A stretch of DNA of 64,000 nt from an uncultured Gammaproteobacteria bacterium (GCA_964490105.1 CAZAZU010000001.1:22706-86705), one strand, 5' to 3'. Counted from the stretch's first letter, positions 5,671 through 57,894 are shown. Numbers and translations are program-made. Notes: generated from the letters alone by a model not told the origin.

Positions 5671-5682
5671 CGGAGAGAATTG

Positions 5683-12125: not shown

Positions 12126-12128
12126 GTG

Positions 12129-27818: not shown

Positions 27819-28097
27819 ATGAACAATCCATTTGGACAAATAGGCGAACTTAAGAAAATGAGAGATCAGGCGATGCAAATTCAGCGTTTGCTCTCTGCTG
27901 AGGAAGTAGAAGTTAACAAAAACGGAGTTGATATAACAATCACTGGGGATCAAAAAATTAAAGAAATTAAGACAAACGGAAGATCAGACAACGATATTAA
28001 AGAAGCTATTAACGAAGCCGTTAAAAAATCTCAAGAAGTTGCAGCGAAAAAACTTGCAGGAATGCAGGGCGGTCTCGGAGGACTTTTAGGAAAATAA
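27819..28097 (+). CDS. ybaB: nucleoid-associated protein YbaB/EbfC
   Basis: Conserved dnaX-ybaB-recR context; GVDITITGDQKIKEI; strong SD GGGAGGTG. Confidence 0.85.
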   Translation: MNNPFGQIGELKKMRDQAMQIQRLLSAEEVEVNKNGVDITITGDQKIKEIKTNGRSDNDIKEAINEAVKKSQEVAAKKLAGMQGGLGGLLGK

Positions 28098-29002
28098 TGT
28101 TAATTTTTAGCGGGACTTCGAATCCCGCACTTGCTAAAAAAATTGCTGAAAAATTAGATACCAAGCTTTCTTCATTGGAGATTTTTAAATTTCCAGATAA
28201 GGAAGTTAGGGTTAGGGTTTTGGAAAACGTTTTAGATAAGCATGCGATTGTTGTGCAATCTACAGGAGTGCACCCAAACCACTACTACATGCAGTTGTTT
28301 TTCATCTTAGACGCTTTAAAGAGAAGCGGAGGATCAGAGGTAACATTAGTAATTCCATATTTAGGATATCAAAGACAAGACCATATTTTTAGAAGCGGAG
28401 AAGCGGTTTCGCTTGAGGTAATCGTAAATCTCATAAAAGCAATGAAAGTCGATCGCGTTATTTCATTTGATCTTCACGCGCCAAGAATTGCGGATTTTTT
28501 TATTAATAAAAAAATTAAGATGGATCATCTTTCGGCTCTTCCTGTTTTTGCAAAAGAAATAGAGAAAATGGATTTGAAAAATGTAGTTTTGGTAAGTCCT
28601 GATATGGGAGGAATAAGAAGAATTAAAATTTTAGCTGGCCTTTTGAATCAGGATGTGCCATGTATTTCAGTTGAAAAAAATAGAGATTTAAATACTGGTG
28701 AAATTGAATCAAATAAAATAAATGGAGAAGTTAAGGAAATTGCAGTTATAGTGGATGACATGATTTCTACAGGAAACACTCTTATAGCAGCAGCAAATTT
28801 ACTTAAAAAAAACGGAGCAGAGGAGGTTTATGTTTTTGCAACACATGGAATTTTTGCGGGGGAAGCGCCAATAAATCTTCAGAAATCTATTATAAAAAGA
28901 GTAACAGTAGCAGACACCATAGAGGTTAGGGCTAAGCGAAAATTTGAAAAACTCCATGTAGTTTCTGTTTCTCCTTTAATAGCCGAAGCACTTAAGAAAT
29001 GA
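28097..29002 (+). CDS. prs: ribose-phosphate pyrophosphokinase
   Basis: PRPP-binding loop VIVDDMISTGNTL; N-terminal domain pattern. Confidence 0.9.
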   Translation: MLIFSGTSNPALAKKIAEKLDTKLSSLEIFKFPDKEVRVRVLENVLDKHAIVVQSTGVHPNHYYMQLFFILDALKRSGGSEVTLVIPYLGYQRQDHIFRSGEAVSLEVIVNLIKAMKVDRVISFDLHAPRIADFFINKKIKMDHLSALPVFAKEIEKMDLKNVVLVSPDMGGIRRIKILAGLLNQDVPCISVEKNRDLNTGEIESNKINGEVKEIAVIVDDMISTGNTLIAAANLLKKNGAEEVYVFATHGIFAGEAPINLQKSIIKRVTVADTIEVRAKRKFEKLHVVSVSPLIAEALKK

Positions 29003-42269: not shown

Positions 42270-43943
42270 TTGGTAATGAAGAGAAAATATTTTTTGTTGC
42301 TTTTTGTATTATTTATTTTTCTGGTTTCTAAATCACAAGCTCATGCTGAAAAAATTGACTCTTTCGATGTAAATATTGTCGCCCACGAAGATGGGAAAAT
42401 GAGCATTACTGAAACTATAAATTATGACTTTGAATATAACCAGCGTCATGGAATTTTTAGATATATTCCACTCTACTCAAAAGTTGGAGAATTATATAGA
42501 GTAATTAAGGTTGGAAATATTGAGGTGGAAAGAAATGGGGAAGAGGAAAATTTCGAAACAACGAGGTCAAAAGAACAGGTATATTTTAAAATTGGAAATG
42601 CCAATAGGGAAATTACAGGGAAACACACTTACAAGATTTCATATATCGTTGAAAACGGAATAGGCAGTAATTACGAAACCCACGATGAGATTTATTGGAA
42701 AGTGACAGGAAATGACTGGCAAATTCCTATAGAAAAAGCCTCTGTAAATCTAACGACAGATTTTGGGGTAAATTCAAATAGGGTTGCATGCTTCACGAGA
42801 GATTCTACTTTTAATGCACAATTTTGTACTTTTCCAAAAGATATTTTTAATCCAGTAACAACGACTAGCGCTCTAAATCCCGGAGAAGGGTTAACGGTTG
42901 TTTATGGTTTCCCCGTCAACACGTTTCCTAAAAGCACATTATTAAAGGAGCTTCCAAAAAATACTTCTGAAAAAATTGCTGGATTTATTTTTAAAAATTT
43001 AGGAATTATTTATTTAATTATTAATTTTTTAATTCCATCTATGATTTTCTTTTGGTATAAAAAATATAAAAATAAAAAAAGATTTGGAAAACCATCTGTA
43101 AATTTTGAGATTCCTAAAAATGAAAAAGGAGAAAGGCTTGCTCCAGCTATAGCAGGAACCATTGATACTGCGAGGCTTGAAAGAGATGATGTTGTGGCAA
43201 CGCTTTTTGATTTAGCAATTAGAAAATATATAAAACTCGAGGAAACAAAAAATAAAAAAACGCTTGCTCCCGATAAAATTACTCAGAAAATTATTAAGCT
43301 GAAAGAAAAAGATAATAAACTCTCTAAATTTGAAGAAGAACTATATGATCGTTTGTTCGAGAATGGGAATGAAGTGGATGTAGAGGATTTAAAGAAGGAT
43401 TTCTATAAAACGTATTCTAGTATGGAAGAAAGTGTTTTTAAATCTCTGGTCGAAAAAAAATATTACGTAAAAAATCCAAAAGTACAAAGAGGATTTTTAT
43501 TGGTTTTTGGATTTTTTGCAATTTTTACAGGCAATTTAATTTTAGGAGGAACTTTAATTTATCTTTCAAGAAAGCTTATCGGAAGAACTGCTTTGGGAGA
43601 TGAAATAGATTTTAAAATAGACGGACTTAAATTATTTTTGAAATCTATGGATAGGAATTATAAATGGCAAGCAGAAAAATTTTATACAGTAGAAGCAATG
43701 ATTCCTTATGCGATGAGCCTTGGTTACATAGACAAATTTATGGAACAATTAAAAATAATAAAACCGGACTATAATCCAACTTGGTACCATGGATATGGAG
43801 GAGGTTTTTACGCTTCTTATGGATCGTTTTCCTCTGGAGTTAGTTCAAATATAACCACTTCAGCTCCTAGTTCTTCGTCAGGTTTTTCGGGCGGCTCTTC
43901 TGGCGGTGGAGGAGGAGGCGGAGGGGGCGGGGGAAGCTGGTAA
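42270..43943 (+). CDS. DUF2207-family membrane protein with Gly/Ser-rich C-terminal tail
   Basis: Signal peptide, IYWKVTGNDW, TM cluster, terminal SSSGFSGGSSGGGGGGGGGGG. Confidence 0.75.
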   Translation: MVMKRKYFLLLFVLFIFLVSKSQAHAEKIDSFDVNIVAHEDGKMSITETINYDFEYNQRHGIFRYIPLYSKVGELYRVIKVGNIEVERNGEEENFETTRSKEQVYFKIGNANREITGKHTYKISYIVENGIGSNYETHDEIYWKVTGNDWQIPIEKASVNLTTDFGVNSNRVACFTRDSTFNAQFCTFPKDIFNPVTTTSALNPGEGLTVVYGFPVNTFPKSTLLKELPKNTSEKIAGFIFKNLGIIYLIINFLIPSMIFFWYKKYKNKKRFGKPSVNFEIPKNEKGERLAPAIAGTIDTARLERDDVVATLFDLAIRKYIKLEETKNKKTLAPDKITQKIIKLKEKDNKLSKFEEELYDRLFENGNEVDVEDLKKDFYKTYSSMEESVFKSLVEKKYYVKNPKVQRGFLLVFGFFAIFTGNLILGGTLIYLSRKLIGRTALGDEIDFKIDGLKLFLKSMDRNYKWQAEKFYTVEAMIPYAMSLGYIDKFMEQLKIIKPDYNPTWYHGYGGGFYASYGSFSSGVSSNITTSAPSSSSGFSGGSSGGGGGGGGGGGSW

Positions 43944-44006
43944 GGTTTGCTTATTGCATGGAAATCTAATAATTGATTGAATCAAACTAGAGAGGAGGTG
44001 AATCTA

Positions 44007-44432
44007 ATGAATATAGAAGTAAATTATTTAGCACTAATTTTAGCAGTGGTTGTTTCCATGGTAATCGGTTTTGCTTATTACATGAATCCAATTATTGCAA
44101 AACCATGGATGAAATTAATGGGCTATTCTAAAGACGACGTGAAGCCTACTGGAAATGAGATGGCAAAAATGTATGGAACAAGCGCAGTGCTTGCTCTAAT
44201 AACAGCTTTTGTTTTATCCCACGTAATGACTATGTCAATTTCGTATTTTAATTATTCTCCAGTTATGACTGGGGTGATTAGTGCATTTTGGATGTGGTTA
44301 GGTTTTATAATGCCAGTACAAGCAACAGATGTTTTATTTAGTAAAAAACCCATGAAGCTTTTTGCGATTAATACTTTTCATCAATTGCTTTCGTTACTAG
44401 GAATGGGAATTGTGATTGGATTGGTTAGATAG
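44007..44432 (+). CDS. DUF1761-family membrane protein
   Basis: MNIEVNYLALILAVVVSMVIGFAYY...KPW; SD AGAGGAGGTG upstream of the ATG at 44007 (ORF-track start 43977 is less likely). Confidence 0.65.
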   Translation: MNIEVNYLALILAVVVSMVIGFAYYMNPIIAKPWMKLMGYSKDDVKPTGNEMAKMYGTSAVLALITAFVLSHVMTMSISYFNYSPVMTGVISAFWMWLGFIMPVQATDVLFSKKPMKLFAINTFHQLLSLLGMGIVIGLVR

Positions 44433-44438
44433 TGTCGT

Positions 44439-44483
44439 CCCCGATTTAATCGGGGTTGACAAAAGCTATAAAAACAATAAAAT
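44439..44483 (+). promoter_or_regulatory. 17-bp palindrome CCCCGATTTAATCGGGG fused to TTGACA -35, 16-nt spacer, TAAAAT, 6 nt to purK ATG (copy 2; plus orientation)
   Basis: 26-nt exact identity with copy 1; same spacing and leaderless geometry. Confidence 0.6.
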
Positions 44484-44489
44484 CAAAAC

Positions 44490-45623
44490 ATGATTTACCC
44501 CGCAACGATTGGCATAGTAGGCGGTGGACAGCTCGCTAAAATGCTCACAATTGCTGCAAAGAAAATGGGGTTTAGTGTTATTGTTACAGATCCGACTCCC
44601 GGAAGTCCTGCTGGTCAAGTTGCTGATCGCGAGTTAGTCGGTGGTTATAAAGACGAAAAAGTAACCCGTGAATTAGCTAAGCTTTCTGACATAATTACTG
44701 TTGATGCAGAATTTGTTAATGATAAAGTTTTATCAGAAATTGAAAAATCAGGAAAGCCTGTTCATCCATCTCCCAAGACAATCTCGATTATTAAAGATAA
44801 ACTTCGGCAAAAAGAATTTCTAAGAAAAAATAGTATTGCTACAGCAGAATTTGTTCCTGTTAAAAATACAAACGACATAAAAAAAGCCATTAAGAAGTTT
44901 GGGTTACCAATTTTATTAAAAGCTCGGGAAGATGCTTACGACGGAAAGGGCAACTTCGTTATAAAAAAGGAATCAGATGTTGAAGAGGGTTTAAAGAAGC
45001 TTGAAGGTAGATCTCTTTATGTTGAGAAATTTGTGCCATTTGTTAAAGAGCTTGCAATAATGGTCGCAAGAACACCAGGTGGGGAGATCGCCGCATATCC
45101 GGTGGTTGAGACAATTCATGTAAATAATGTATGTGATACTGTAATTGCGCCGGCAAAAGTTTCGAAGAAAGCTGTAAAAAATGCCACAAATTTAGCAAAA
45201 AAAACTATGAAGCAGCTTAAGGGGGCTGGAGTTTTTGGAATTGAAATGTTTTTAATTAAAGGGGATAAGGTTCTCATTAACGAAATAGCTCCACGTGTTC
45301 ATAACTCAGGTCATTACACAATTGAGGCGAGTATTACATCTCAATTTGAACAGCATATACGGGCAATTACAGGATTGCCGCTTGGTTCAACTGATTTAAT
45401 GGTAAAATCTGCAGTAATGAAAAATATTTTGGGAGAGAGAGAAGGATCAGGGTATCCTATGGGAGTTGAAAAAGCATTGAAGATTTCTGGAGTTTCATAT
45501 CATTTATATAATAAAAAAGATTCGAGGGTTGGAAGAAAAATGGGACATATTACAGTATTTGGAGATAGTGAGAAGATTAATTTGCAAAAAGCGAATAAAG
45601 CAAGAAAAGCATTAATAATATGA
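44490..45623 (+). CDS. purK: N5-carboxyaminoimidazole ribonucleotide synthase
   Basis: ATP-grasp; TIGIVGGGQLAKML; purE follows. Confidence 0.88.
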   Translation: MIYPATIGIVGGGQLAKMLTIAAKKMGFSVIVTDPTPGSPAGQVADRELVGGYKDEKVTRELAKLSDIITVDAEFVNDKVLSEIEKSGKPVHPSPKTISIIKDKLRQKEFLRKNSIATAEFVPVKNTNDIKKAIKKFGLPILLKAREDAYDGKGNFVIKKESDVEEGLKKLEGRSLYVEKFVPFVKELAIMVARTPGGEIAAYPVVETIHVNNVCDTVIAPAKVSKKAVKNATNLAKKTMKQLKGAGVFGIEMFLIKGDKVLINEIAPRVHNSGHYTIEASITSQFEQHIRAITGLPLGSTDLMVKSAVMKNILGEREGSGYPMGVEKALKISGVSYHLYNKKDSRVGRKMGHITVFGDSEKINLQKANKARKALII

Positions 45624-46135
45624 AAAAAGAAGTAGCAATTGTAATGGGATCTGATTCGGATCTTTCTGTTATGAAAGATGCTGCTGAAATATTAGAAAGT
45701 TTTGGAATAGGTTATTATCTTTCAATTGTCTCGGCGCATAGAACACCCCAGAGACTATTTGATTTCTCAAAATCTGCAGAAAAAAAAGGATTTAAAGTTA
45801 TTATTGCAGGAGCAGGTGGATCAGCACATCTGCCTGGGATGATTGCTTCTCTTACTCCGCTTCCTGTAATCGGAGTGCCAATTAGAGGAAAATCTTTTGA
45901 AGGATTTGATTCATTAATGTCTATTGTTCAAATGCCTCCAGGAATTCCCGTTGCAACTGTTGCAGTAAATGGTGCAAAAAACGCAGGAATTTTAGCAGCA
46001 AGTATTATCGGCATAAGTAATAAGAAGGTTCTAGGAAAAGTAGCCGAATTTAAAAATAATTTAGAGAAAGAAGTTTTAAAAAAAGTTCAGAAAATTGAAA
46101 AAGTAGGATTTCAGAAATATCTTGATGAAAAATAA
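45620..46135 (+). CDS. purE: N5-CAIR mutase
   Basis: VAIVMGSDSDLSVM, AGGSAHLPGMIAS. Confidence 0.92.
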   Translation: MKKEVAIVMGSDSDLSVMKDAAEILESFGIGYYLSIVSAHRTPQRLFDFSKSAEKKGFKVIIAGAGGSAHLPGMIASLTPLPVIGVPIRGKSFEGFDSLMSIVQMPPGIPVATVAVNGAKNAGILAASIIGISNKKVLGKVAEFKNNLEKEVLKKVQKIEKVGFQKYLDEK

Positions 46136-47582
46136 TTCTCAAAACGAAAAAGTTAACGTTGTAGACAAAAATTTAAAAACTCTTTATAAAACCACGAAAA
46201 AAGAAGCTCACGAAAAAGGATTACTTCATAAGACTGTTATAGCTGAGGTGGTTGATTCCAAAGGGAGATATTTGCTCGTTAAACAAGCTCCAGACAGACA
46301 AGACGCGGGAAAATTTGTTTCTCCAGTTGGAGGGCATGTAAGATCGAATGAAACAGATGAAGAAGCTTTAGAAAGAGAGGCGTTTGAAGAATTAGGAATT
46401 AAAAACTTCAGCCATGAATATTTGGGGAATATTATTTTTAACAGAAAAATACTTGGGAGAGCGGAAAATCATTACTTTATTATTTATAAAATAAAATGGG
46501 ACAAGAAAATAAAATTAAATCATGAGTCAGTTGAAAGCAAGTGGTTTACTGTTAAGGAGTTAAAATTTGCTTTAAAAAATAATAGAGAAATTTTTGGAGC
46601 AGCATATTTAACTTGTCCGCTTGAAATGTATTTAGGAACCGTTAAAAAAAGTATGGAGAAAAATAAAAATGCATTAATTAAAACAGTTGATTTAAAAGGA
46701 TTTGGGAAAAAATATCAAGGAAAAGTTAGGGATTGCTACATAAAGGGAGATAAAAGAATTCTCGTTACAACTGATCGAATTTCTGCGTTTGATGTTATTC
46801 TTGGATTTATTCCTGGGAAAGGTGCGGTGCTAAATCAGTTAGCTGCTTTTTGGTTTGAAAAAACTTCGGACATAATCCCGAATCATCTTATTTCAGTTCC
46901 TCATCCGAATGTGAGTATTGTAAAAAACGTAAAATTAATTCCTATTGAAATGGTTGTAAGAGGTTATATCTCTGGTGTTACTAATACGTCAATATGGGGT
47001 AGTTATCAAAAGGGGGAGAGGGTTATTTATGGAATAAAATTTCCTGATGGACTATCTAAAAATCAAAAATTAAAAACCCCAGTTATTACTCCTACGACTA
47101 AAGCAGAGTCAGGGCACGATGAAAGATTAACTGAGAAAGAAATTATTGATCGAAAAATAGTGACTCCTGGAATTTGGAAGCAAATGAAAAAAGCAGCATT
47201 AGAATTATTCGAAAGAGGAACTAAAATTTGTGAAAAAGGCGGAATAATTTTAGTTGATACAAAATATGAATTTGGACTAGACTCAAGCGGGAAGTTAATT
47301 TTAATTGATGAAATACACACTCCTGATTCTTCAAGATTTTGGATTAAAAAAACTTATAAAGCGCGAATAAAGAAAGGGTTGGAACCGGAAAATTTCGATA
47401 AAGAATTTTTAAGACTTTGGTATGCAAAAAGAGGTTATACCGGATCAGGAAAACCTCCGAAAATGCCGTCAGTACTTGCAAATCAAGTAAGCAAACGTTA
47501 TATTCAAATATATAAAAAGATCACCGGAAAAATACCTGAAAAAGAAGTGGTTCCATTAAGAGAATTACAGATTCAAATTTAG
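46122..47582 (+). CDS. purC: Nudix hydrolase domain fused to ADE1-type SAICAR synthetase
   Basis: Nudix box GGHVRSNETDEEALEREAFEELGI; then GKVRDCYI...LVTTDRISAFDV, MVVRGYISG, ILVDTKYEFG, HTPDSSRFW. Confidence 0.85.
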   Translation: MMKNNSQNEKVNVVDKNLKTLYKTTKKEAHEKGLLHKTVIAEVVDSKGRYLLVKQAPDRQDAGKFVSPVGGHVRSNETDEEALEREAFEELGIKNFSHEYLGNIIFNRKILGRAENHYFIIYKIKWDKKIKLNHESVESKWFTVKELKFALKNNREIFGAAYLTCPLEMYLGTVKKSMEKNKNALIKTVDLKGFGKKYQGKVRDCYIKGDKRILVTTDRISAFDVILGFIPGKGAVLNQLAAFWFEKTSDIIPNHLISVPHPNVSIVKNVKLIPIEMVVRGYISGVTNTSIWGSYQKGERVIYGIKFPDGLSKNQKLKTPVITPTTKAESGHDERLTEKEIIDRKIVTPGIWKQMKKAALELFERGTKICEKGGIILVDTKYEFGLDSSGKLILIDEIHTPDSSRFWIKKTYKARIKKGLEPENFDKEFLRLWYAKRGYTGSGKPPKMPSVLANQVSKRYIQIYKKITGKIPEKEVVPLRELQIQI

Positions 47583-47585
47583 CTG

Positions 47586-49004
47586 ATGACTTTACAAGAA
47601 CCAGACAAGATGAAGGAAAAATGCGCTGTTTTTGGCGTGTATGGTAGAAAAGGACTTCAAGCTGCAAGACTAACATACTTCGGTCTTTACACACTTCAGC
47701 ATAGGGGACAAGAAAGTTCAGGAATCTCTGCAACCAATGGAAAACAACTGCGCACTCATAAAGCAAATGGACTTGTTACCCAAGTATATAATGAGGAAAA
47801 TTTTAAAGAACTAAAAGGACATATGGCGATAGGGCATAACAGATACTCTACGTCTGGAGGAGTTCATGATTCTCATGCTCAGCCAGTAACATCCCGAAGG
47901 GCAATGCATGACATTTTAGTACTAGCGCATAATGGGAATTTGCCAACTGTAGATAATCTCTCATCTTTTTTAAGAGAGAAAGGTTTTTACACAGATGGTT
48001 TAAATGATTCTGAGTTAATGCATCAAGTAATTAGATATTTTCTTGTTAAAACGGGATCTTTAGAAGAAGCAATAAAAATGTCATTCCCAATGTTTAAGGG
48101 TGCATTTTCTCTTTTAGTAATGACAAAAGATAAAATTGCTGCAGTTAGAGATTCATACGGAATCAGGCCTTTGACTTTGGGGAAATTAGGAGGAGGTTAT
48201 GTATTTTCTTCTGAAACCTGCGCAATTGATACAGTGGATGGAAAATATATTAGAGACGTAAAACCAGGGGAAATGGTGGTGGTGGATTCATCAGGTTTGA
48301 AATCTTACCAGCTCGCTAAGCCAACGCCTAAATTAGATATATTTGAATTTGTGTATTTCGCTAGACCTGACAGTGCACTTCTGGGGAAAAGTGTATATGC
48401 TGTCAGAAGAAATATGGGAGTGCAGCTTGCGAAGGAGAATCCCATAAAAGCAGATGTAGTCATTCCAATTCCTGATTCATCAATTCCTGCAGCGATTGGA
48501 TATGCCGGAGCTCTAAAAATACCGCTTGAATTTGGCCTTACAAAGAACAGATATATTGGACGTACGTTTATTATGCCAGATCAGCATCTAAGAGAAAGAG
48601 GGGTAGAGATGAAGCATAATCCAATCAAGGAAATTATAAAAGATAAAAATGTTGTGGTAATTGATGACTCGATAGTTAGGGGAACTACAGCAAAAAAGCT
48701 TGTGTTAATGTTAAAGAAAAATGGAGCAAAAAAAGTTCATATCATAAGCTCTTCTCCGCCAGTTAAATTTCCAGACTTTTATGGAATCGATACTCCATCA
48801 CAGAAAAATTTAATTGGAGCAAACATGAGTATCCCTAAAATAAAAAAATATATAGGAGCTGATTCGCTATATTTTCTTTCATATAAAGGTCTTTTAAAAG
48901 CAATTGGAGTTCCTGAGAAGGAATTATGTACGGCATGTTTTACCGGCGAATACCCGATTGATATTGGTAAAAAGCGAAAACTTATTAGGTACGAAAACAC
49001 ATGA
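47586..49004 (+). CDS. purF: amidophosphoribosyltransferase
   Basis: N-terminal CAVFGVYG nucleophile region, PRTase loop VVVIDDSIVRGTTAKK. Confidence 0.9.
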   Translation: MTLQEPDKMKEKCAVFGVYGRKGLQAARLTYFGLYTLQHRGQESSGISATNGKQLRTHKANGLVTQVYNEENFKELKGHMAIGHNRYSTSGGVHDSHAQPVTSRRAMHDILVLAHNGNLPTVDNLSSFLREKGFYTDGLNDSELMHQVIRYFLVKTGSLEEAIKMSFPMFKGAFSLLVMTKDKIAAVRDSYGIRPLTLGKLGGGYVFSSETCAIDTVDGKYIRDVKPGEMVVVDSSGLKSYQLAKPTPKLDIFEFVYFARPDSALLGKSVYAVRRNMGVQLAKENPIKADVVIPIPDSSIPAAIGYAGALKIPLEFGLTKNRYIGRTFIMPDQHLRERGVEMKHNPIKEIIKDKNVVVIDDSIVRGTTAKKLVLMLKKNGAKKVHIISSSPPVKFPDFYGIDTPSQKNLIGANMSIPKIKKYIGADSLYFLSYKGLLKAIGVPEKELCTACFTGEYPIDIGKKRKLIRYENT

Positions 49005-49597
49005 AGTCTCTCGCTGTTTTAGTTTCCAATGTGGGTACAGGATCAAATCTTCAAGCGATAATTGACGCTATAAATAATAAAAAAATATCAGCAAAGATTA
49101 GTGTTGTAATAAGTTCAGATACTGACGCATTTGGTTTAGTTCGAGCAGAGAAAAATAAAATAGCTACTGAAATCTCAAATAAAAAAGATCTTCTTAAAAC
49201 TCTAAATAAATATGAAATCGACTATGTGTGTTTAGCGGGTTGGAGATTAATTATTGACAATGAAGTATTAAGAACTTACGAAAATAAAATATTAAACCTT
49301 CATCCGGGTTTGATTCCGGATAGAATTAATGGAAATGTTAAAAACCCAGATGGAACAATTGGTCTTTGGAATAGAGGTAAATTAACAGATGTTGCAATTG
49401 AAAATTTTTTGAATAATAATGCAACTTATGCTGGATCATCAATCCATTTTCTTTCTAATGAATTTGATTTTGGAAAAGTCCTAGATCGAACTTTTGAAAA
49501 AATAAAAAAGTCCGATACCGTTGAAACTTTGTATAAAAGATTAAAAGTTAAAGAAAATAAATTATACGTTAATGTATTAAAAAAACTTTGCAAATGA
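49001..49597 (+). CDS. purN: phosphoribosylglycinamide formyltransferase
   Basis: CLAGWRLI, NLHPGLIPD. Confidence 0.75.
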   Translation: MKSLAVLVSNVGTGSNLQAIIDAINNKKISAKISVVISSDTDAFGLVRAEKNKIATEISNKKDLLKTLNKYEIDYVCLAGWRLIIDNEVLRTYENKILNLHPGLIPDRINGNVKNPDGTIGLWNRGKLTDVAIENFLNNNATYAGSSIHFLSNEFDFGKVLDRTFEKIKKSDTVETLYKRLKVKENKLYVNVLKKLCK

Positions 49598-49676
49598 ATC
49601 CCGTTAAAAATAATTATTTAAAAAGTATCTGTTTTAATTTGATCTTTAATCCTTCAAGAAAGGAATTTTTAACGGG

Positions 49677-50975
49677 ATGAATATTTTAATATTAGGATCA
49701 GGCGGCAGGGAGCATGTGTTATCAGATGCATACGCGAAAAATAAAAAAGTAAAGAAAATATTTGTAGCGCCCGGAAATCCATTCATAGATTTTTCAAATA
49801 AAAAAGTTAAATCTCTTTTAGACATTCCTTCAACTGACTTTGAAAAAATAAAAGATACAATCGAGAAATATAAGATTGATCTAGTTGATGTTGCACAGGA
49901 TGATCCTATTGCGTTAGGATTCGTGGATAAGTTAACAGACTTAGGAATAAAAGCATTTGGCCCCACAAAAAATGCCTCAGAAATAGAATGGAGTAAGGAG
50001 TGGTCCAGAAATTTTATGCTTAAGTATCATCTTCCCACACCGCATTTTAAAAGTTTCAATTCACAAAGTCGAGGAATTTTTTATGTTAAATCCTTAAGAG
50101 AGCAGCCACTCTATATTAAAGCATCAGGGCTCGCCCTTGGTAAAGGAGCTATTAGAGCTAGTAATAAAAAGGAGGCTATTCAGGCAATTAAGCAAATGAA
50201 AATTTTCGGTAAAGCTGGAGAAACATTTGTAGTAGAGGAAGCAATGAGTGGAGAAGAGTTTTCTTTATTTGCTATTTGTGATGGGGAAAATTATAAAATT
50301 ATCGGAAGCGCACAGGATCATAAAACAGCATCTAATGGTGACATTGGACCAAATACTGGTGGAATGGGATGCGTAACGAATCCTAAAATTGTAACGCCCA
50401 AAATTATAAACGAGATCGAGAAAAAAATTTTAATTCCATTTATGAAAGGAATGAAAAAGGAAAAAAGAGATTACTCTGGTATTTTATATGTTGGCGGTAT
50501 GGTTACGGAAAAAGGAGTAAAGATTGTAGAATTTAATTCCAGGTGGGGCGATCCCGAAGCTGAAGTATTAATTCCGGGAATATTGTCTGATTATTTAAGT
50601 ATTGTGGAATCCGTTTTAGATAAAAAACTTAATAAATTAAAAATAAAAACTGATAAATTGGTAAGAGTGAGTGTTGCTGGATGCAGTAATGGTTATCCAA
50701 TAGACTATTCAAAGGTAAAAGGAAAAAGAATAATTGGGCTTGAAAAAGCTATTAAATTGCCAAACATAAAAGTTTATGGCGCAGGAATTTCAAAGAATGA
50801 AAATAAATTCGTCGCAGGGGGTGGAAGAGTCTTTCATTTGACAGGAGCAGGATTTACATTATCTCAAGCAAGAATGAGGGCTTACGGAGCGTTGTCTTTA
50901 ATAACAATTGAAAACAATAACTTACATTACAGAACCGACATCGGATGGAGAGATTTAGAAAGAGAAAATCTATGA
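49677..50975 (+). CDS. purD: phosphoribosylamine--glycine ligase
   Basis: MNILILGSGGREHVLSDAY, ATP-grasp core. Confidence 0.9.
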   Translation: MNILILGSGGREHVLSDAYAKNKKVKKIFVAPGNPFIDFSNKKVKSLLDIPSTDFEKIKDTIEKYKIDLVDVAQDDPIALGFVDKLTDLGIKAFGPTKNASEIEWSKEWSRNFMLKYHLPTPHFKSFNSQSRGIFYVKSLREQPLYIKASGLALGKGAIRASNKKEAIQAIKQMKIFGKAGETFVVEEAMSGEEFSLFAICDGENYKIIGSAQDHKTASNGDIGPNTGGMGCVTNPKIVTPKIINEIEKKILIPFMKGMKKEKRDYSGILYVGGMVTEKGVKIVEFNSRWGDPEAEVLIPGILSDYLSIVESVLDKKLNKLKIKTDKLVRVSVAGCSNGYPIDYSKVKGKRIIGLEKAIKLPNIKVYGAGISKNENKFVAGGGRVFHLTGAGFTLSQARMRAYGALSLITIENNNLHYRTDIGWRDLERENL

Positions 50976-53776
50976 TTCTTACTGTTAGAGTTGCTTCAAA
51001 AAACGAAAGTGAGGATTTAAAGGGGATAGATGTATCTCGTAGAATAAAAGATCCAAGTGTTACAAAAGTGAGATCCGTTAGGGTTTATAGGCTTGAGGGA
51101 ATTAGTAAAAAAACTGCAAAATTTTTAGCAGAAAAATTATTATCAGAATCTATTAACCAAAAATATACAATTGATGAACAAATATTTAATGCCCGTTCTA
51201 AAATAGAAGTTGCATATAAGCCGGGTGTTATGAACCCGGAAGTATCATCAATTTTAAAATCCGCAAAAGATTTAAAAGTAAAACTATTGGCAGCTGATTC
51301 GTCATGGGAGTATCATTTTTTTGGCGCTCTTAGCTTGGAGAATATTAACGAGCTAGGACTATATAATCCTTTAATTGAATATTTAGTGGATAAGCCTCCA
51401 AGGACATTACAAATTTCAGGAAGAGTTGGACCTACGAATACTGTTTTGATTCGGGATTGTTCGGATGATGATCTAATGGAACTTTCTAAGGATAAATTAT
51501 TTTTAAATTTATCAGAGATGAAAGTAATTCAGGAGTATTTCAGGAAAATCAAAAGAGATCCAAATGATATTGAGCTTGAAACTCTTGCACAAACCTGGAG
51601 TGAGCATTGTGCGCATAAAACTTTTAAAGCAAATTTAATAATCGATGGGGAAAAGAAAAAACCGTTAATTGAAAGAATTAAAACTGAAGCTTTAAAACAC
51701 CCTAAAAATATTGTTTCAGCATTTGGAGATAATTCTGGCGTAATGAAATTTTATGATGGGTATTCGATTTGCGGTAAAGTTGAGACTCATAATAGTCCTT
51801 CAGCAATTGAGCCATACGGAGGAGCGATGACTGGAAGTGGGGGAGTTTTTAGAGATGTGCTTGGTACTGGACAAGGAGCTAAGACAATTGCTAGTACTGA
51901 TATATTTTGTTTTGCAGATCCTTCATTACCTAAAAAAGATTTGCCGACAGGGTGTCTTAACCCAAATTACTTACTTAAAAGAGTAGTTGAGGGAGTTAGA
52001 GACTATGGAAATAGAATGGGAATCCCCACAAATAATGGTTCAGTTCATTTTCATAATGATTTTCGCGCGAAACCTACTGTAATTGTTGGAGCATATGGAA
52101 TAATTCCCACAAAAAAAGCAAAAAAGGGAGTGCCGATTAAAGGAGATTTGATAGTCGCTGTTGGGGGAAGGACTGGGCGCGACGGAATTCATGGTGCGAC
52201 TTTTTCATCAGCTGAAATGACTGACAGGACAATTTCTGTAAATTCTTCAGCAGTTCAAATTGGTAATGCTATCGAGGAAAAAAGAATGTTCGATGCGATA
52301 ATTGAGGCCCGTGATTTTGGTTTAATTAGAGCCATAACCGATTGCGGAGCGGGTGGTTTTTCTTCGGCAGTTGGTGAAATAGGATCTAAGACTGGAGTAA
52401 GAGTAGATCTAGCAAATGCTCCGCTTAAATATCACGGGCTGTCTCCTTGGGAGATTTGGGTTTCTGAGTCACAAGAAAGAATGGTAATTGCGATTGCTAA
52501 AAAAGATATAAAAAAATTCTTAGAAATTTGTAAAAAATATAACGTAGAAGCAGCGATCTTAGGAAACTTTACTGATACTAAAAAGCTTGAAGTTTTTTAT
52601 GGAAAAAAACAAATTGCTAACTTATCAATGAAGTTTTTACATGATGGTTTACCTCAAAGGTTGATGATAGGCAAAAAAACTAAAATTGAACACTCAAAGA
52701 AAGAACCTAAGATTCCAAAAAAAGAATCAGAATGGATTGAAATATTTAAAAAGATTTTGTCTCATGGAAATATAAATTCTAAAGAGCCGATTGTTAGAAT
52801 GTATGATCACTCAGTCCAGGGTACAAATGATTTGCAGCCTTATAGTGGAGTAAAGCTAGATTCTCCCAATGACAGTGTAGTGATTCGTCCAATTCTTAAT
52901 AAAAAATATGCAATGGTTTTATCTCATGGTTTGAACCCAATTTTGAATAGAATTAATCCTTATGACGGGAGTATTTGGGCAGGGGTTGAGGCATTATCAA
53001 ATTATGTAAGCGTAGGAGGAAATATTGAGGAAGCCTCTCTTATAAATAATTATATCTGGCCTTTTCCAGATGAAGAATCTTTATATAGTCTTGATCGATC
53101 AGTAGACGCAGTAGTGGACATTATGAGGACTTTAAAAACTCCAGTTATTTCAGGAAAGGATAGTTTGTCGTCAACTTACAGAAAGGGAGATACAGTTATA
53201 AAGATTCCACCGGTTCTTTGCATTTCTGTTTTTGGCAGAATACCGGACGCGACAAAAACTGTATCTTCTGATTTTAAGAAAACAAATTCTACTGTTGTTC
53301 TTGTTGGGAATTTAGATACGAATTCCATGGGGGGATCTGTTTATTTTGATGTAAATAATTTACTTGGAGAAAAAGTTCCCAGAATAGACCTAAAAGATTT
53401 TTCTAAAATTGCAAAATCAATAAACAAGGGAATTGTTAATGGGGATATATTATCATGTCATGATGTTTCAGAAGGAGGCTTGCTTGCAGCTCTTTTTGAA
53501 ATGTGTATCGGAGGAGACATGGGGGTGAATTTTCGACTTCCTAAAAATAAAAGAGAGGATTACTTTCTTTTTAACGAAACAGCGGGAACTTTCTTAGTAG
53601 AAGTTGAAAGCAGAGAAGTGGCTAAAAAACTTTTTAAAAATGTTAATTATTTAATAGTTGGAGAAACTAAAAAAGAAAAAAATATTGAAGTTTTAAATAG
53701 TAAAAAAATATTTAGCGCTAGTTTACCGGATCTAAAAAATGTTTGGCAAAAACCAATGAGGAAAATTTTTCCATGA
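50945..53776 (+). CDS. purL: phosphoribosylformylglycinamidine synthase: PurS-like N-terminal domain fused to PurL (FGAM synthase II)
   Basis: N-terminal ILTVRVASK...VRSVRVYRLEG (PurS-like); then TWSEHCAHKTFKA and AIR-synthase-related repeats; real start probably MILTV at 50972. Confidence 0.85.
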   Translation: MERFRKRKSMILTVRVASKNESEDLKGIDVSRRIKDPSVTKVRSVRVYRLEGISKKTAKFLAEKLLSESINQKYTIDEQIFNARSKIEVAYKPGVMNPEVSSILKSAKDLKVKLLAADSSWEYHFFGALSLENINELGLYNPLIEYLVDKPPRTLQISGRVGPTNTVLIRDCSDDDLMELSKDKLFLNLSEMKVIQEYFRKIKRDPNDIELETLAQTWSEHCAHKTFKANLIIDGEKKKPLIERIKTEALKHPKNIVSAFGDNSGVMKFYDGYSICGKVETHNSPSAIEPYGGAMTGSGGVFRDVLGTGQGAKTIASTDIFCFADPSLPKKDLPTGCLNPNYLLKRVVEGVRDYGNRMGIPTNNGSVHFHNDFRAKPTVIVGAYGIIPTKKAKKGVPIKGDLIVAVGGRTGRDGIHGATFSSAEMTDRTISVNSSAVQIGNAIEEKRMFDAIIEARDFGLIRAITDCGAGGFSSAVGEIGSKTGVRVDLANAPLKYHGLSPWEIWVSESQERMVIAIAKKDIKKFLEICKKYNVEAAILGNFTDTKKLEVFYGKKQIANLSMKFLHDGLPQRLMIGKKTKIEHSKKEPKIPKKESEWIEIFKKILSHGNINSKEPIVRMYDHSVQGTNDLQPYSGVKLDSPNDSVVIRPILNKKYAMVLSHGLNPILNRINPYDGSIWAGVEALSNYVSVGGNIEEASLINNYIWPFPDEESLYSLDRSVDAVVDIMRTLKTPVISGKDSLSSTYRKGDTVIKIPPVLCISVFGRIPDATKTVSSDFKKTNSTVVLVGNLDTNSMGGSVYFDVNNLLGEKVPRIDLKDFSKIAKSINKGIVNGDILSCHDVSEGGLLAALFEMCIGGDMGVNFRLPKNKREDYFLFNETAGTFLVEVESREVAKKLFKNVNYLIVGETKKEKNIEVLNSKKIFSASLPDLKNVWQKPMRKIFP

Positions 53777-54555
53777 AAAAACCAAGAGCAATTATTATAA
53801 AAGCAGATGGGATTAACAGAGATGAGGATATGGTTTTCGCATTTAATCTTGCTGGAGCTGATGCAAAATTGGTTCACATTAATGATTTAAGAAGCAAAAA
53901 AGAAAAACTTTCTGATTATCAAATTTTAGGTATTCCCGGAGGTTTTGCTTATGGAGATGACATAGTATCGGGGAAAATTTTAGCAACAGAAATGGTGGCT
54001 TATCTTGGTGATGAGATTCGAAAATTTGTAAAAAGAAAAAACACAGCGGTAATCGGAGTCTGTAATGGGTTTCAGGTTTTAGTGCGCACCGGTCTTGTTC
54101 CGTTTGGAAATATTGGAGAAATGGATGTGACACTTGCTAATAACGATTCAGGACACTTCGAATGCAGATGGATAAAAGTAAAAGTAGAATCAAATTCAAA
54201 AAGTAGATTTTTAGAGGGAATGGAAAATGAGATTTTGTGGTATCCGGTTGCACACGGAGAAGGAAAGTTTTATGCAGATGACAAGATAATTAAAAAAATA
54301 GAAGATGAAAATTTAGTTGCCTTTCGTTATGTAGACGAAAAAGGAAATCCTACGCAAAAATATCCAGATAATCCAAATGGGTCAATTAATGCAATTGTCG
54401 GAGTAACTGATGAGTCTGGAAGAATCTTGGGCCTTATGCCGCATCCTGAGTGTTTTGTCCGTATTGAACAACATCCCAACTGGCGTCGTGGTTTAATCGA
54501 ATCTCCTCAAGGTCTACCTCTTTTTAAAAATATTGTAAATTTTGTAAAACAATGA
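53743..54555 (+). CDS. purQ: FGAM synthase glutaminase subunit
   Basis: GVCNGFQVL catalytic Cys, HPE; likely start MKKPRAI at 53773. Confidence 0.88.
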   Translation: MAKTNEENFSMKKPRAIIIKADGINRDEDMVFAFNLAGADAKLVHINDLRSKKEKLSDYQILGIPGGFAYGDDIVSGKILATEMVAYLGDEIRKFVKRKNTAVIGVCNGFQVLVRTGLVPFGNIGEMDVTLANNDSGHFECRWIKVKVESNSKSRFLEGMENEILWYPVAHGEGKFYADDKIIKKIEDENLVAFRYVDEKGNPTQKYPDNPNGSINAIVGVTDESGRILGLMPHPECFVRIEQHPNWRRGLIESPQGLPLFKNIVNFVKQ

Positions 54556-55649
54556 GAAAAATCACATATAAATCTTCGGGTGTTGATTATTCAAAATTAG
54601 ATCCAATTAAAAAACTTGCTCAAGATTCAGCTAGAAAAACCTCAAAAAATTTTCCGAAGAGTTTTAATGAAATAGCTGATAGCAGAGGTGAGTCTGCATT
54701 TGTTTGGAAACAGGGAAATCAATTGATGGCATTTGTCATGGAGGGACTCGGAACGAAAAGTCTAGTAGCTGACGGAGTTTACGAGCAATCAAAGAAATCA
54801 TTTTATGGGAATATTGCTCAGGACACTGTTGCAACTATTATTAATGATCTTGTAAGCATTGGCGCAAAGCCATTAATTTTAAATGCTTATTGGGCTGACG
54901 CTGGAGATGGATTTTTACAAGATCCTAAGAGAATGAAAGATTTTATAGTTGGATGGGAAAAAGCTTGTAATCTGTCAGGTGTTGTTTGGGGGGGAGGAGA
55001 GACACCAACATTAAAAGGAATTATTGAAACAAAGTCTGTAGATTTGGGAGGATCAGCTGTAGGATTAATTGATAGTAGTAGGAATTTAATTTCTGATAAA
55101 AAAATAAAAGCTGGGGATCGAATAATTTTAATAAAAAGTAATGGAGTGAATGCAAATGGAATTAGTTTGACACGAGCGATTGCCAAAAAACTTCCTAAAG
55201 GGTACCTGACAAAATTACCAAGTGGAAAATTGTATGGAGAAAGTTTGTTAACTCCTTCAAATATTTATGCAAAAGTAATTTTGGATTTGCAGAAAAATAA
55301 TATAGATATTCATTACGTTTCAAATATTACAGGGCACGGTGTAAGAAAGATTATGAGAGGACGTCCAAAATTTACTTATATAATTGAAAAGATTTACAAA
55401 CCCCAACCCGTTTTTGACTTCATTCAAGCACATGCAGGTTTATCGGATTATGAAATGTATGAAACATATAACATGGGACAGGATTACTGTTTAATTATTC
55501 CAGAAAATGACGTTAATAAATGTTTAAAAATAATTAGTAAAAATAAATTTATAGCTATTAGTGCTGGGTATGTAGAAAAAGGGGAGAAGCAAGTAATAAT
55601 AAAATCTAAAAACTTAATTTACAAAGGTGAAACTTTAGACTTAAGATAA
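54552..55649 (+). CDS. purM: phosphoribosylformylglycinamidine cyclo-ligase (AIR synthase)
   Basis: SGVDYSKLDPIKK; AIRS N/C domains. Confidence 0.88.
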   Translation: MRKITYKSSGVDYSKLDPIKKLAQDSARKTSKNFPKSFNEIADSRGESAFVWKQGNQLMAFVMEGLGTKSLVADGVYEQSKKSFYGNIAQDTVATIINDLVSIGAKPLILNAYWADAGDGFLQDPKRMKDFIVGWEKACNLSGVVWGGGETPTLKGIIETKSVDLGGSAVGLIDSSRNLISDKKIKAGDRIILIKSNGVNANGISLTRAIAKKLPKGYLTKLPSGKLYGESLLTPSNIYAKVILDLQKNNIDIHYVSNITGHGVRKIMRGRPKFTYIIEKIYKPQPVFDFIQAHAGLSDYEMYETYNMGQDYCLIIPENDVNKCLKIISKNKFIAISAGYVEKGEKQVIIKSKNLIYKGETLDLR

Positions 55650-55650
55650 A

Positions 55651-57894
55651 TTATTTCTTCCGATAAATGAAAACTAAAGTTGCCTTATCAGCTGTTACTT
55701 CATGAATCAATTTATATTCCTTTTTAATTTCACTATCATCAAATCCTTCTCTTAAAACATTAAAATAATTTACAACTACATAATCATATTTTTTATTTTC
55801 ATTATATTTTTCAGCCTGATATTCGCTGTAGTATGGAAAAGAATGGAGAGGAGAAATTGCAAGACCAACTTTAGAATCTTTAGGTGCATTATCTCTTAGA
55901 TAAATTCCGGCTTCTCTGTTTCCCTGACCCCACGATCCAATTTGGAAAAGACGGGAATCATAAACTCCATTTACTCCGCCTGGGAGAATATTAAAATAAT
56001 CCAAATAATATGGAGTTATGCTTTTTAGAATTATTAAAAAATAAATTATTAGAGCAAGGATAGCAAAAAATTTAATTTTAAATTTGTTTTTAAACATTTC
56101 TAGACTAAATTCAAGACCAATTGCTGCGATTAATGCTAGCGGAGCATAAACTTGAATAATGTAGCGAAGACCATGCTGTTTGAATGGATAAAGAGATTGA
56201 AAGAAGGGAAGCATGAACCAAACAAGTACTGCATATAGAACAAATTTTTTTCTAATATCTATCGCCTTCATTCCGATAAAAAATAAAGATATAATTAAAA
56301 ATGGCGTTGTTATTAAAAAGTAAACTGGGTAATAGACGATTGGCACCAGCATTAGTCTTCCAAAAAATATTTCAGGGGGAGGGAGTTTAACTTCATTTGA
56401 AAACCACATAGCTTTTTCAATGGCAATTGCATCGTTTAAATTTAAGAATGCCATAGGCCAAAGAAGAATAAATGTAATACAGGAAATTATAAAAATTGAA
56501 AACAGTGGTATGATTAATTGTTTTAAAAAAATTGTTTTATTTTTTTTATCTTTTAGAAAATACCAAATAAGATAAATTACTAAAAATAATGGATAAATAA
56601 AAATATTTGTTTGTTTTACTCCTAATGCGAGTCCAGTAAATATACCAGTCAAAAATAAAGTTTTATAAGAAAATTTATGGAGCAAGTTTACAAAAAGAAA
56701 AACCGATGCTGTAAAGAAAAACATCACGAGACTTTCAAGAGTCGCTAATTGAGAATACCCTAAGAATGTAGGTAGCATGCTTAAGATAATTCCAGCGGTG
56801 AACCCAACAAATGGAGAAATATATTTCCAACCAAAAAGTGCAATTAATATAACTGAAAGCGTAGAAAATAAAACAGCTACAAGTCTTGCATGGGTATAAT
56901 CATAGCTATAAATAGGTGTTCCATTTTTATCAAAATTTTGAATATCGAAAGAAGATGCAAGTCCATATAGATATCTACCAATCGGTGGATGATCAAAGGT
57001 AAATTTAAAGAATGGATTATTAAAATCTCCATCAATAATCAGATTATTCATCGTATATCCATTTTCAGAATATGCGCCTTCGTCCCAAGTCCTGCCCATC
57101 TCATTAAGATTCCAGAATCTTAGAGCTAGAGTTAGAGCGATTAGCAGGGAGATAGATATTATTTTTATGTTCCTGGGAGTTTTAAATCTAATTGCTAATA
57201 TATTTATTAAAGATGTTAAGAGTTCTCTATTTCCATATGATGATCTTCCAAATTGTCTTTCGACAAAAGTTGTTGGAACTTCAGAAATTTTAAAATTATT
57301 TTTTTTAAGTTTATATGCTGTTTCTGAAAGAACAATAAATCCGCTGGATTCAAGTTTTATTTGTACTAAAAATTCCAACGCATTTCTACTGTAGAGTCTA
57401 TAGCCATTTGTATAGTCAGAAAGCTTTAAGTTTAATAGTACACTTAAAAATTTGTTAATAATTTTACTCATCACAACCCGCCACATTGCCCATTTTATTA
57501 TTTTACTTTCTGATAAATATCTAGAGCCAACCACTAAGTCAGTATTATCTTTTTTTATTTTTTCGATAAAGCTTTTTGCTTCTTTTGGATCATGAGAAAG
57601 GTCTGCGTCCATCTCAAAAGCATGTGTTATTTTTTTATCTTTTAATGCAATTTTAAATCCTTCTATGACTGCGCTTCCTCTTCCCATCTTTTTTTTGCGA
57701 GGAAAATATATGACATTTTTTTTACCAGATTTTGAGAGAAGTTTTTTAATTTTATTTTTTTCTAGAGAATTTGAATCGTCAACGATTATTATTTTAGACT
57801 TTGGGTGATGCTTTCGAATTTTATTGATGAGAAGAATAATATTTTCTGACTCATTATAAGAGGGGATAATAAATGCAACATTAATTAATTTCAT
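55651..57894 (-). CDS. fusion glycosyltransferase: N-terminal GT2 (Dpm1/ArnC-like polyprenyl-phosphate sugar synthase) + C-terminal multi-TM GT-C (PMT/ArnT-like, GT39/83)
   Basis: IIPSYNESENI, IVDDSNS, EMDADLSHDP (GT2); then ~12 TM helices with first-loop DEGAYSENGY motif. Confidence 0.75.
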   Translation of the reverse strand: MKLINVAFIIPSYNESENIILLINKIRKHHPKSKIIIVDDSNSLEKNKIKKLLSKSGKKNVIYFPRKKKMGRGSAVIEGFKIALKDKKITHAFEMDADLSHDPKEAKSFIEKIKKDNTDLVVGSRYLSESKIIKWAMWRVVMSKIINKFLSVLLNLKLSDYTNGYRLYSRNALEFLVQIKLESSGFIVLSETAYKLKKNNFKISEVPTTFVERQFGRSSYGNRELLTSLINILAIRFKTPRNIKIISISLLIALTLALRFWNLNEMGRTWDEGAYSENGYTMNNLIIDGDFNNPFFKFTFDHPPIGRYLYGLASSFDIQNFDKNGTPIYSYDYTHARLVAVLFSTLSVILIALFGWKYISPFVGFTAGIILSMLPTFLGYSQLATLESLVMFFFTASVFLFVNLLHKFSYKTLFLTGIFTGLALGVKQTNIFIYPLFLVIYLIWYFLKDKKNKTIFLKQLIIPLFSIFIISCITFILLWPMAFLNLNDAIAIEKAMWFSNEVKLPPPEIFFGRLMLVPIVYYPVYFLITTPFLIISLFFIGMKAIDIRKKFVLYAVLVWFMLPFFQSLYPFKQHGLRYIIQVYAPLALIAAIGLEFSLEMFKNKFKIKFFAILALIIYFLIILKSITPYYLDYFNILPGGVNGVYDSRLFQIGSWGQGNREAGIYLRDNAPKDSKVGLAISPLHSFPYYSEYQAEKYNENKKYDYVVVNYFNVLREGFDDSEIKKEYKLIHEVTADKATLVFIYRKK

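Follow-up and report, generated by a model that had tools for sequence, protein, structure and literature searches.

Why would a bacterial purine operon carry a Nudix hydrolase joined to one of its biosynthetic enzymes? The question is raised by a stretch of 64,000 nucleotides (nt) deposited under the title 'uncultured Gammaproteobacteria bacterium' (GCA_964490105.1, CAZAZU010000001.1:22706-86705; hereafter the window, meaning the whole stretch), in which positions 44490-55649 hold a single dense operon of purine synthesis (pur) genes on the plus strand, in the order purK, purE, a Nudix~purC fusion, purF, purN, purD, a PurS~PurS~PurL fusion, purQ and purM. A preliminary description of this DNA, made from the sequence alone, had reported the nine genes as contiguous, and the open reading frames (ORFs) together with their Pfam and NCBIfam matches bear this out. 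We report that Nudix-PurC, in which a Nudix domain precedes PurC, the synthetase of phosphoribosylaminoimidazole-succinocarboxamide (SAICAR), is a genuine, undescribed and evolutionarily labile domain architecture, and the only new item of the region. Neither the cluster nor its PurS-PurL fusion stands out in the lineage, and both are of known kinds; Nudix-PurC itself is a modest curiosity, not a new system.

A Nudix domain fused to SAICAR synthetase

Within one ORF (46122 or 46125 to 47582, depending on the start), Pfam places NUDIX at residues 36-150 (E=3e-16) and SAICAR_synt at residues 197-437 (E=6e-71). With 60-63 bits the PF00293 match exceeds its threshold of 21.1, the motif GHVRSNETDEEALEREAFEELGI is an exact fit to the Nudix box GX5EX7REUXEEXGU, and the AlphaFold2 (AF2) model gives the N-terminal ~170 amino acids (aa) a confident Nudix fold. 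For the PurC half, NF009251 passes its cutoff, and the best Foldseek matches, in a range of 29-33% identity, are yeast Ade1 (2CNU, E=3e-15, 32% identity) and Mycobacterium abscessus PurC (3R9R), which are the same long-form SAICAR synthetase but, unlike the window protein, lack an N-terminal Nudix domain. The long yeast-type PurC is present in all Microgenomates relatives. These matches agree with the preliminary description, which had proposed a Nudix domain of ~170 aa fused N-terminally to an Ade1-type synthetase.

Could a missed stop, a frameshift or a chimeric assembly have joined two separate genes? The probability is negligible. The fusion ORF is unbroken and exactly 1458 nt long in eight loci from different samples and assemblers, and NCBI, ENA and Logan assemblies all contain the identical protein, encoded on a contig of 784,859 bp. 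Recurrence in relatives, a check suggested with the preliminary description, is seen in 14 protein clusters (69-100% identity) from independent assemblies, all of one clade, that contain both Pfam domains; one member, EKD85757.1, has been in GenBank since 2012, annotated as PurC only. Among the fusion loci the operon order is kept down to 72% identity.

Neither half has lost its catalytic signature, and strong purifying selection acts on both. The Nudix box residues R84, E85, E88, E89 and G91 are invariant across the 14 fusion proteins and 37 stand-alone relatives, and the median ratio of nonsynonymous to synonymous substitution rates (dN/dS) is 0.07 for the Nudix domain, 0.12 for the linker and 0.05 for PurC, at a dS of ~1.3. 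In the AF2 model of the fusion, which has a predicted TM-score (pTM) of 0.51, the predicted local distance difference test score (pLDDT) is 85-97 over Nudix residues 10-160 and falls below 50 at linker residues 175-182; the ~20-residue linker is accordingly predicted to be disordered, and the model supports no fixed interface between Nudix and PurC.

A literature search found no fusion of Nudix and SAICAR synthetase, and the 2017 review of the Nudix clan (PMC5389931) makes no mention of SAICAR. The PurC-PurE protein of eukaryotes (PAICS) and the PurN-PurH1 protein of Halobacteria (PMC3261824) likewise place PurC or its pathway neighbours on one polypeptide, but these join consecutive pathway enzymes, whereas the Nudix partner in the window is not an enzyme of the pathway.

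The Nudix domain and its stand-alone family

With Foldseek, residues 1-165 align best to Escherichia coli YfcD (2FKB; target-normalised TM-score, TMt, 0.80), Deinococcus DR_0079 (2O5F) and type-1 isopentenyl-diphosphate isomerase (IDI; 1HX3/1I9A, TMt 0.75), with a Foldseek probability of 1.00 against 2FKB, 2O5F and 3GRN. An N-terminal beta-hairpin extension is common to YfcD, DR_0079, type-1 IDI and the window domain (TMt 0.71-0.80), which on the strength of its predicted structure appears to be a complete hydrolase of the YfcD/DR0079/IDI type. Sequence identity to these proteins is ~20%, a level at which the preference of DR_0079 for cytidine diphosphate and cytidine triphosphate (CTP) (PMC5389931) is not transferable to the window domain; for YfcD, no substrate is apparent among the titles and abstracts listed by a literature search. 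The best PDB sequence matches, all with weak E-values, are NudI (5e-6), CTP pyrophosphohydrolase and other nucleoside triphosphatases. An assignment as MutT 8-oxo-dGTPase was rejected (TIGR00586, 20 bits against a cutoff of 97.9; NF008044, 27.4 bits against a cutoff of 148).

A search with the Nudix domain alone returned hundreds of stand-alone homologues of ~170 aa, 51-64% identical to the fused domain, from Roizmanbacteria, Jacksonbacteria, Parcubacteria, Aenigmarchaeota and others across the candidate phyla radiation (CPR) and DPANN, labelled MutT or IDI. Their gene neighbours are housekeeping genes (def-nudix-fmt; nusA, tig, ruvABC), with no purine genes. Some members of the stand-alone family (among P0123-P0240) are double-Nudix proteins of ~310 aa. 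The JGI label 'isopentenyl-diphosphate delta-isomerase' is attached to this ~170-aa family, though its members lack Cys67 and Glu116 of IDI and have a canonical Nudix box; an IDI-like His/His/His/Glu cluster is retained in the family.

Probable gain and loss of the Nudix module

The fused domains form a single clade in a neighbour-joining tree of the Nudix family, with a Roizmanbacteria protein as their sister. Fused and stand-alone domains share 56.5% identity, compared with 59.6% among the stand-alone members, and the fused domain keeps 41 of the 42 family-invariant positions and displays no rate acceleration. It is thus as conserved as the stand-alone members, which argues for one capture with function unchanged. 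In the closest unfused relatives purE directly abuts purC (in locus L008 the junction reads TAAATG), and the first residue of the L008 PurC corresponds to the residue right after the linker in the fusion. The fusion probably goes back to a single insertion of a complete stand-alone Nudix gene of ~170 aa between purE and purC, in the ancestor of a single small clade; at the resulting junction the 3' end of purE overlaps the fusion gene by 11 nt.

The module also appears to have been lost. Locus L073 has the same synteny as the window (DUF2207-DUF1761-purK-purE-purC-purF-purN) but a PurC of 307 aa without Nudix, and a tree of PurE+PurC+PurF (943 columns) places it within the fused clade, as sister to the fused locus L007 in 300/300 bootstraps. 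This tree replaced a neighbour-joining tree of PurC only, which carried no support values and mixed fused and unfused proteins. The L073 PurC starts MKKTNLVKAVDLKGFG, while L007 reads MKKNNQ, then the Nudix domain, then SSKNNKLIKTVDLKGFG, so that the L073 N-terminus matches the product expected if the module were deleted in frame. Judged from these sequences, Nudix-PurC is confined to one small clade, and the module seems to have been removed cleanly in the sister lineage L073. Another unfused locus, L074, groups with the fused L070 in 254/300 bootstraps.

The 9-mer GAAAAATAA flanks the module at 46127-46135 and 46658-46666, in the same codon phase and 531 nt apart, and a deletion between the two copies would yield a normal PurC start like that of L073; there are, however, 10 copies of this 9-mer in the window, and we give the flanking pair, which may be chance, little weight.

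Independent activities or functional coupling?

What, then, is the fusion for? The reading we favour, and consider somewhat likelier to be right than wrong, is that this is a Levybacteria purine operon with the tandem PurS form of PurL (mdPurL, below) into which a housekeeping Nudix gene was captured, and that the captured domain acts independently of PurC. The Nudix domain would be joined to the N-terminus of the yeast-type PurC through the disordered linker of ~20 residues, with translational coupling at the junction. The two domains would act independently, PurC making SAICAR and the Nudix domain hydrolysing a substrate of the nucleoside di- or triphosphate type, as its stand-alone family presumably does. 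The sole coupling would then be co-transcription and 1:1 co-translation with purine enzymes, selection would preserve the two activities but not their linkage, and the sister lineage would have deleted the Nudix module in frame while keeping a normal PurC. If the substrate were a purine by-product such as inosine triphosphate (ITP) or xanthosine triphosphate (XTP), we speculate that house-cleaning would be timed to purine synthesis.

Several points weigh against independence of the two domains and against parts of the argument for it. When purifying selection preserves a fusion over a dS above 1, its parts are classically suspected of being functionally linked, and a dedicated purine-linked role for this Nudix domain is possible. 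Genomes of the fusion clade may keep a second, stand-alone Nudix copy. The AF2 model is of only moderate quality in its PurC half (pLDDT below 50 at 275-333 and at 396-427), and the two domains may share an interface. The trees are neighbour-joining only. Finally, purB and purH were not located in the window or in the 10 kb on either side, and a complete pathway is assumed.

The preliminary description had suggested that the fusion couples nucleotide sanitation or turnover to SAICAR synthesis. In such a scheme the Nudix domain would destroy by-product purine nucleotides (ITP, XTP or the triphosphate ZTP) as the pools of inosine monophosphate (IMP), xanthosine monophosphate or aminoimidazole carboxamide ribonucleotide (AICAR) rise, or would recycle ADP-ribose or phosphoribosyl pyrophosphate (PRPP), and the fusion to PurC would place or dose the activity. 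It is possible, but we regard it as unlikely, and the positive evidence for it consists of the fusion itself: its persistence under purifying selection in 14 clusters and its place inside a tight purine operon fit such a role, as do nucleoside triphosphatases as nearest PDB sequence matches and, among the nearest folds, DR_0079, a hydrolase of nucleoside di- and triphosphates (PMC5389931). Yet the stand-alone relatives have no purine neighbours and are widespread in CPR and DPANN, where many genomes reportedly lack purine synthesis; the fused domain has acquired no clade-specific changes at the family-invariant sites; L073 lost it from an otherwise unchanged operon; and the linker is predicted to be disordered. 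A more specific form, in which the fusion is a true 'Rosetta stone' that ties the substrate of the whole Nudix family to purine metabolism (ITP/XTP, ZTP/AICAR-TP or PRPP), we consider distinctly improbable; if true, Nudix-PurC would be the first genomic clue to a purine role of the family, and possibly a physically coupled bifunctional enzyme.

Might the domain instead sense a ligand and control PurC allosterically, with no catalytic role of its own? Non-enzymatic members of the Nudix clan exist (PMC5389931), and the domain sits N-terminally on a pathway enzyme; but its catalytic Nudix-box residues are all invariant, it resembles the stand-alone, presumably catalytic members at conserved positions, and no confident interdomain contact is predicted, all of which makes a sensor very unlikely. 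Rarer still, in our estimate, are the chances of an IDI fused to PurC by accident. The best NCBIfam match is indeed the IDI model NF002995 (E=1.6e-10), JGI gives many homologues that name, the IDI structures are among the nearest folds, and equivalents of the metal ligands H25, H32, H69 and E114 of E. coli IDI are conserved in the window domain as an IDI-like His/His/His/Glu cluster. The NF002995 score of 40.9 bits, however, is far under the cutoff of 127, the IDI residues Cys67 and Glu116 are replaced by Gly69 and His116, and the domain has the canonical REUXEE box that is missing in the aligned E. coli IDI; type-1 IDI was rejected on these grounds. Overall, the evidence favours an opportunistic, reversible fusion over a new mechanism.

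The operon

The operon (Table 1) encodes every enzyme that leads from PRPP as far as SAICAR, which are steps 1-7 on the way to IMP. Its adjoining genes overlap by 4-14 nt, with the exception of an 80-nt gap between purN and purD. As called in three public assemblies, the genes begin at ATG 46125 for the fusion (485 aa), at ATG 50972 for PurL (934 aa) and at 53773 for purQ (260 aa); longer ORF versions exist for the fusion, from 46122 (486 aa), and for PurL (943 aa). A promoter-like site ends 6 nt upstream of the purK ATG, so that the mRNA of purK and the operon would be leaderless, and transcription probably starts at purK. The preliminary description had spoken of leaderless genes more generally; what stands of this, as a consensus match, is purK. 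At gathering thresholds Rfam finds no RNA family (no tRNA, riboswitch or leader) in the entire 64 kb.

As the preliminary description had noted, the window lacks purA, purB and purH: tblastn with the E. coli proteins PurA, PurB and PurH gave no match in the window, and no gene of their Pfam families occurs in the 10 kb past either of its ends. Among the best 120 matches to a Daviesbacteria PurH none comes from the 784,859-bp contig, a result that speaks neither for nor against purH in this genome.

Table 1. Features of the purine operon and of the supply genes in the window
Feature	Position	Strand	Evidence and remarks
Promoter-like site, TTGACA-16 nt-TAAAAT	44456..44483	+	11/12 consensus positions; best site in 43800-56000; consensus match only
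purK, N5-carboxyaminoimidazole ribonucleotide (N5-CAIR) synthetase	44490..45623	+	ATP-grasp, PurK_C; NF004679 437 bits, cutoff 326
purE, class I N5-CAIR mutase	45620..46135	+	AIRC 2.9e-64; TIGR01162 214 bits, cutoff 149.6
Nudix hydrolase domain of the fusion, residues 1-165	46125..46619	+	PF00293 60-63 bits; pLDDT 85-97
Lys/Asn-rich linker, ~residues 166-185	46620..46679	+	Low pLDDT; variable sequence and length
PurC domain, yeast (Ade1) type SAICAR synthetase	46680..47582	+	PF01259 239 bits; NF009251 398.5 bits, cutoff 371
purF, amidophosphoribosyltransferase	47586..49004	+	TIGR01134 477 bits, cutoff 350
purN-like glycinamide ribonucleotide (GAR) formyltransferase (divergent)	49001..49597	+	Formyl_trans_N; TIGR00639 120.6 bits, under cutoff 150.1; operon position conserved
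purD, GAR synthetase	49677..50975	+	TIGR00877 379 bits, cutoff 288
mdPurL PurS-like repeat 1, residues 1-72	50972..51187	+	beta-alpha-beta-beta-alpha-beta; hhalign to repeat 2
mdPurL PurS-like repeat 2, residues 74-150	51191..51421	+	PDB profile match to PurS 2YX5; PF02700
Formylglycinamide ribonucleotide amidotransferase (FGAR-AT) linker domain and small-PurL core	51422..53776	+	AIRS, AIRS_C, each twice; TIGR01736 557 bits, cutoff 526
purQ, separate glutaminase subunit	53773..54555	+	GATase_5 8.7e-82; TIGR01737 198.5 bits, cutoff 177.8
purM, aminoimidazole ribonucleotide (AIR) synthetase (divergent)	54552..55649	+	AIRS, AIRS_C; TIGR00878 187.6 bits, under cutoff 236.4; operon position conserved
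folA	1368-1880	+	Folate and guanosine monophosphate (GMP) branch genes
guaB	2857-3999	+	Folate and GMP-branch genes
guaA	3962-5521	+	Folate and GMP-branch genes
glyA	5662-7002	+	Folate and GMP-branch genes
pgl	14366-15115	+	Oxidative pentose-phosphate set; unrelated genes interspersed
zwf	16409-17848	+	Oxidative pentose-phosphate set
gnd-like	19863-20768	+	Oxidative pentose-phosphate set
prs, PRPP synthetase	28097..29002	+	Supplies the PurF substrate

Lineage and commonness of the cluster

Which organism does the operon belong to? The closest named relatives of the fusion protein (P0004 and L004, 89% identity) are Candidatus Levybacteria/Levyibacteriota, of the Microgenomates group within Patescibacteria, and from these relatives together with the small genome, on which the placement rests, we assign the source genome to Levybacteria (Microgenomates, CPR). 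The guess of a CPR-like, reduced genome in the preliminary description is therefore right, and the two gene traits that it named are borne out: elongation factor Ts (EF-Ts) is short (150 aa), and rpsB, tsf and frr follow one another without pyrH. Many GenBank third-party annotation records of metagenome-assembled genomes (MAGs) that are clearly Levybacteria or Microgenomates bear the same misleading title, 'uncultured Gammaproteobacteria bacterium' (L001-L003, L005-L007 and others).

Nucleotide synthesis is often missing in CPR bacteria (PMC8407418, PMC5113843), but of 399 CPR MAGs from groundwater, 32% were found to have the whole de novo IMP pathway (PMC11608272). The cluster had been regarded as exceptional for a CPR-like organism, a view that a comparison with relatives does not sustain. 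When the window Pur proteins and E. coli PurA, PurB and PurH were searched by tblastn against 58 related loci, purine clusters appeared in more than 25 loci of Levybacteria, Daviesbacteria and other Microgenomates, with purA-purB (in Daviesbacteria purH too) directly upstream of purE-purC in many of them. De novo purine clusters are routine in the Levybacteria-type lineage, and the one in the window is no anomaly. That such clusters might prove routine had been foreseen for a well-characterised free-living lineage; routine they are, but the lineage is not of that kind. Recent horizontal transfer of the cluster was considered and rejected: its GC content at third codon positions (GC3), 0.16-0.26, is like that of the rest of the window, so that nothing points to recent acquisition.

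The unfused operon of L074 (ENA ERZ978523, 7691-20939) has no purK between DUF2207 and purE, carries an alpha/beta-hydrolase gene between purQ and purM, and has purA right after purM; operon content thus varies among close relatives. In two loci tblastn matches are split into two pieces each, purQ in L003 (17542-18497) and purC in L054 (10091-10856), a pattern that frameshifts, pseudogenes or masking of the MAG sequence might explain.

A tandem PurS on PurL

The second fusion of the operon had been described as PurS joined to PurL. We find that PurS is indeed fused, in two units and not one. The PF02700 match that was to be expected for such a fusion is weak (E=1e-4, 22.6 bits over the first 187 residues of PurL) and is backed by a profile of 34 homologous N-termini searched against the PDB, whose second half matches the PurS structures 2YX5 (3e-6), 1GTD, 8J3N and 1T4A. 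In the AF2 model of the 186-aa N-terminus (pLDDT 94.7) two beta-alpha-beta-beta-alpha-beta units follow one another, and hhalign aligns repeat 1 to repeat 2 with 96.3% probability (E=1.9e-9). The best Foldseek matches of this model are the N-domains of large PurL from human and Salmonella (query-normalised TM-score, TMq, 0.55-0.66), while single units match PurS. The 64-kb window holds no other PurS-like ORF.

The rest of the protein is a small PurL: TIGR01736 covers residues 188-941 of the 943-aa ORF, whereas models for large PurL stay under their cutoffs (NF003672, 391.7 against 783; TIGR01735, 337 against 1123), and the glutaminase is the separate purQ. The long PurL is thus PurS-PurS-small PurL with a separate PurQ, that is, mdPurL. 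In the Bacillus and Thermotoga complex, two PurS accompany each PurL. The PurS-PurL-PurQ enzymes of these bacteria (3D54, 1T4A, 1VQ3) have the same three functional parts, but PurS there is a free subunit of 80 aa, whereas in the window two copies are fused to PurL; the two tandem units would form a PurS dimer in cis on PurL, with PurQ staying a separate glutaminase. The N-domain of large PurL (Salmonella 1T3T/6JTA, human PFAS 9NB3) is, like the window extension, a PurS-fold pseudo-dimer followed by a linker domain (150-197 columns aligned), at 13-15% identity, but large PurL carries its own glutaminase domain.

This form has been seen before. mdPurL was described in 2011 in six methanogens, five of them without purS (Brown et al., Biol Direct 6:63, PMC3261824), as a small PurL with ~200 extra N-terminal residues of low similarity to PurS, no separate purS and a separate PurQ. 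The window protein has a like extension and a separate PurQ, and within the 64 kb there is no separate purS. The methanogen proteins come from Methanomicrobia and Methanococci, whereas the window protein belongs to CPR bacteria; the two are likened by architecture, and in the window protein the internal PurS-PurS duplication is shown. In 17 related loci (L001-L007, L009, L012, L016, L018, L020, L021, L023, L029, L054 and L058, the last being the genome of the window) the extension runs on into PurL without a break, and the family of this N-domain comprises 147 clusters at 50% identity, with full-length members of 930-980 aa. The fusion, initially singled out as unusual, adds a new bacterial case to an architecture already known, and it is lineage-wide in Levybacteria-like genomes, in most of the loci examined.

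Supply genes and other features of the window

The genes folA, guaB, guaA, glyA and prs are present in the window, as had been reported. Together zwf, pgl, gnd, prs, glyA and folA encode PRPP and one-carbon supply in the same window as the operon, and the pgl-zwf-gnd set could feed ribose 5-phosphate to Prs. The guaB product (380 aa) has one continuous Pfam IMPDH match, at residues 11-369, and by its sequence appears to be a GuaB without the CBS (Bateman) subdomain. The window begins within a neighbourhood of nucleotide and folate genes. Near folA, on the minus strand at 25-768, lies a gene for a protein of the F420-0:gamma-glutamyl-ligase family; this CofE-family ligase might be a folate or other glutamyl ligase. 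To the left of the window, L066 (10746-15273) carries thyA, two dcd/dut-like and two thymidylate-kinase-like (tmk) genes.

Six ORFs have no Pfam match: 765-1139 (-), 1860-2792 (-), 7019-7375 (+), 15119-15919 (-), 23611-24279 (+) and 36080-37315 (-). Their overall GC content is raised (0.41-0.44), their GC3 is normal, and so low (0.24-0.27), and several are by eye rich in Pro, Arg, Ala and Gly. Public assemblies include them as genes, and for all the oddity of their composition they look native. At 11067-14267 (-) lie two adjoining genes for polysaccharide-deacetylase-domain proteins, the first with an N-terminal signal that, by eye, is twin-arginine-like.

Implications

Levybacteria-type CPR genomes routinely encode purine synthesis. 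Pipelines that seek a purS gene will wrongly score formylglycinamidine ribonucleotide (FGAM) synthetase as incomplete in genomes with mdPurL, and the sub-cutoff NCBIfam equivalog scores of PurN and PurM suggest that these steps, too, may be under-called in CPR genomes by automatic annotation. Metabolic reconstructions that count the ~170-aa Nudix family as IDI are probably wrong, and false isoprenoid steps could follow. Nudix-PurC, for its part, offers a one-protein experimental handle on the function of a widespread, uncharacterised Nudix family.

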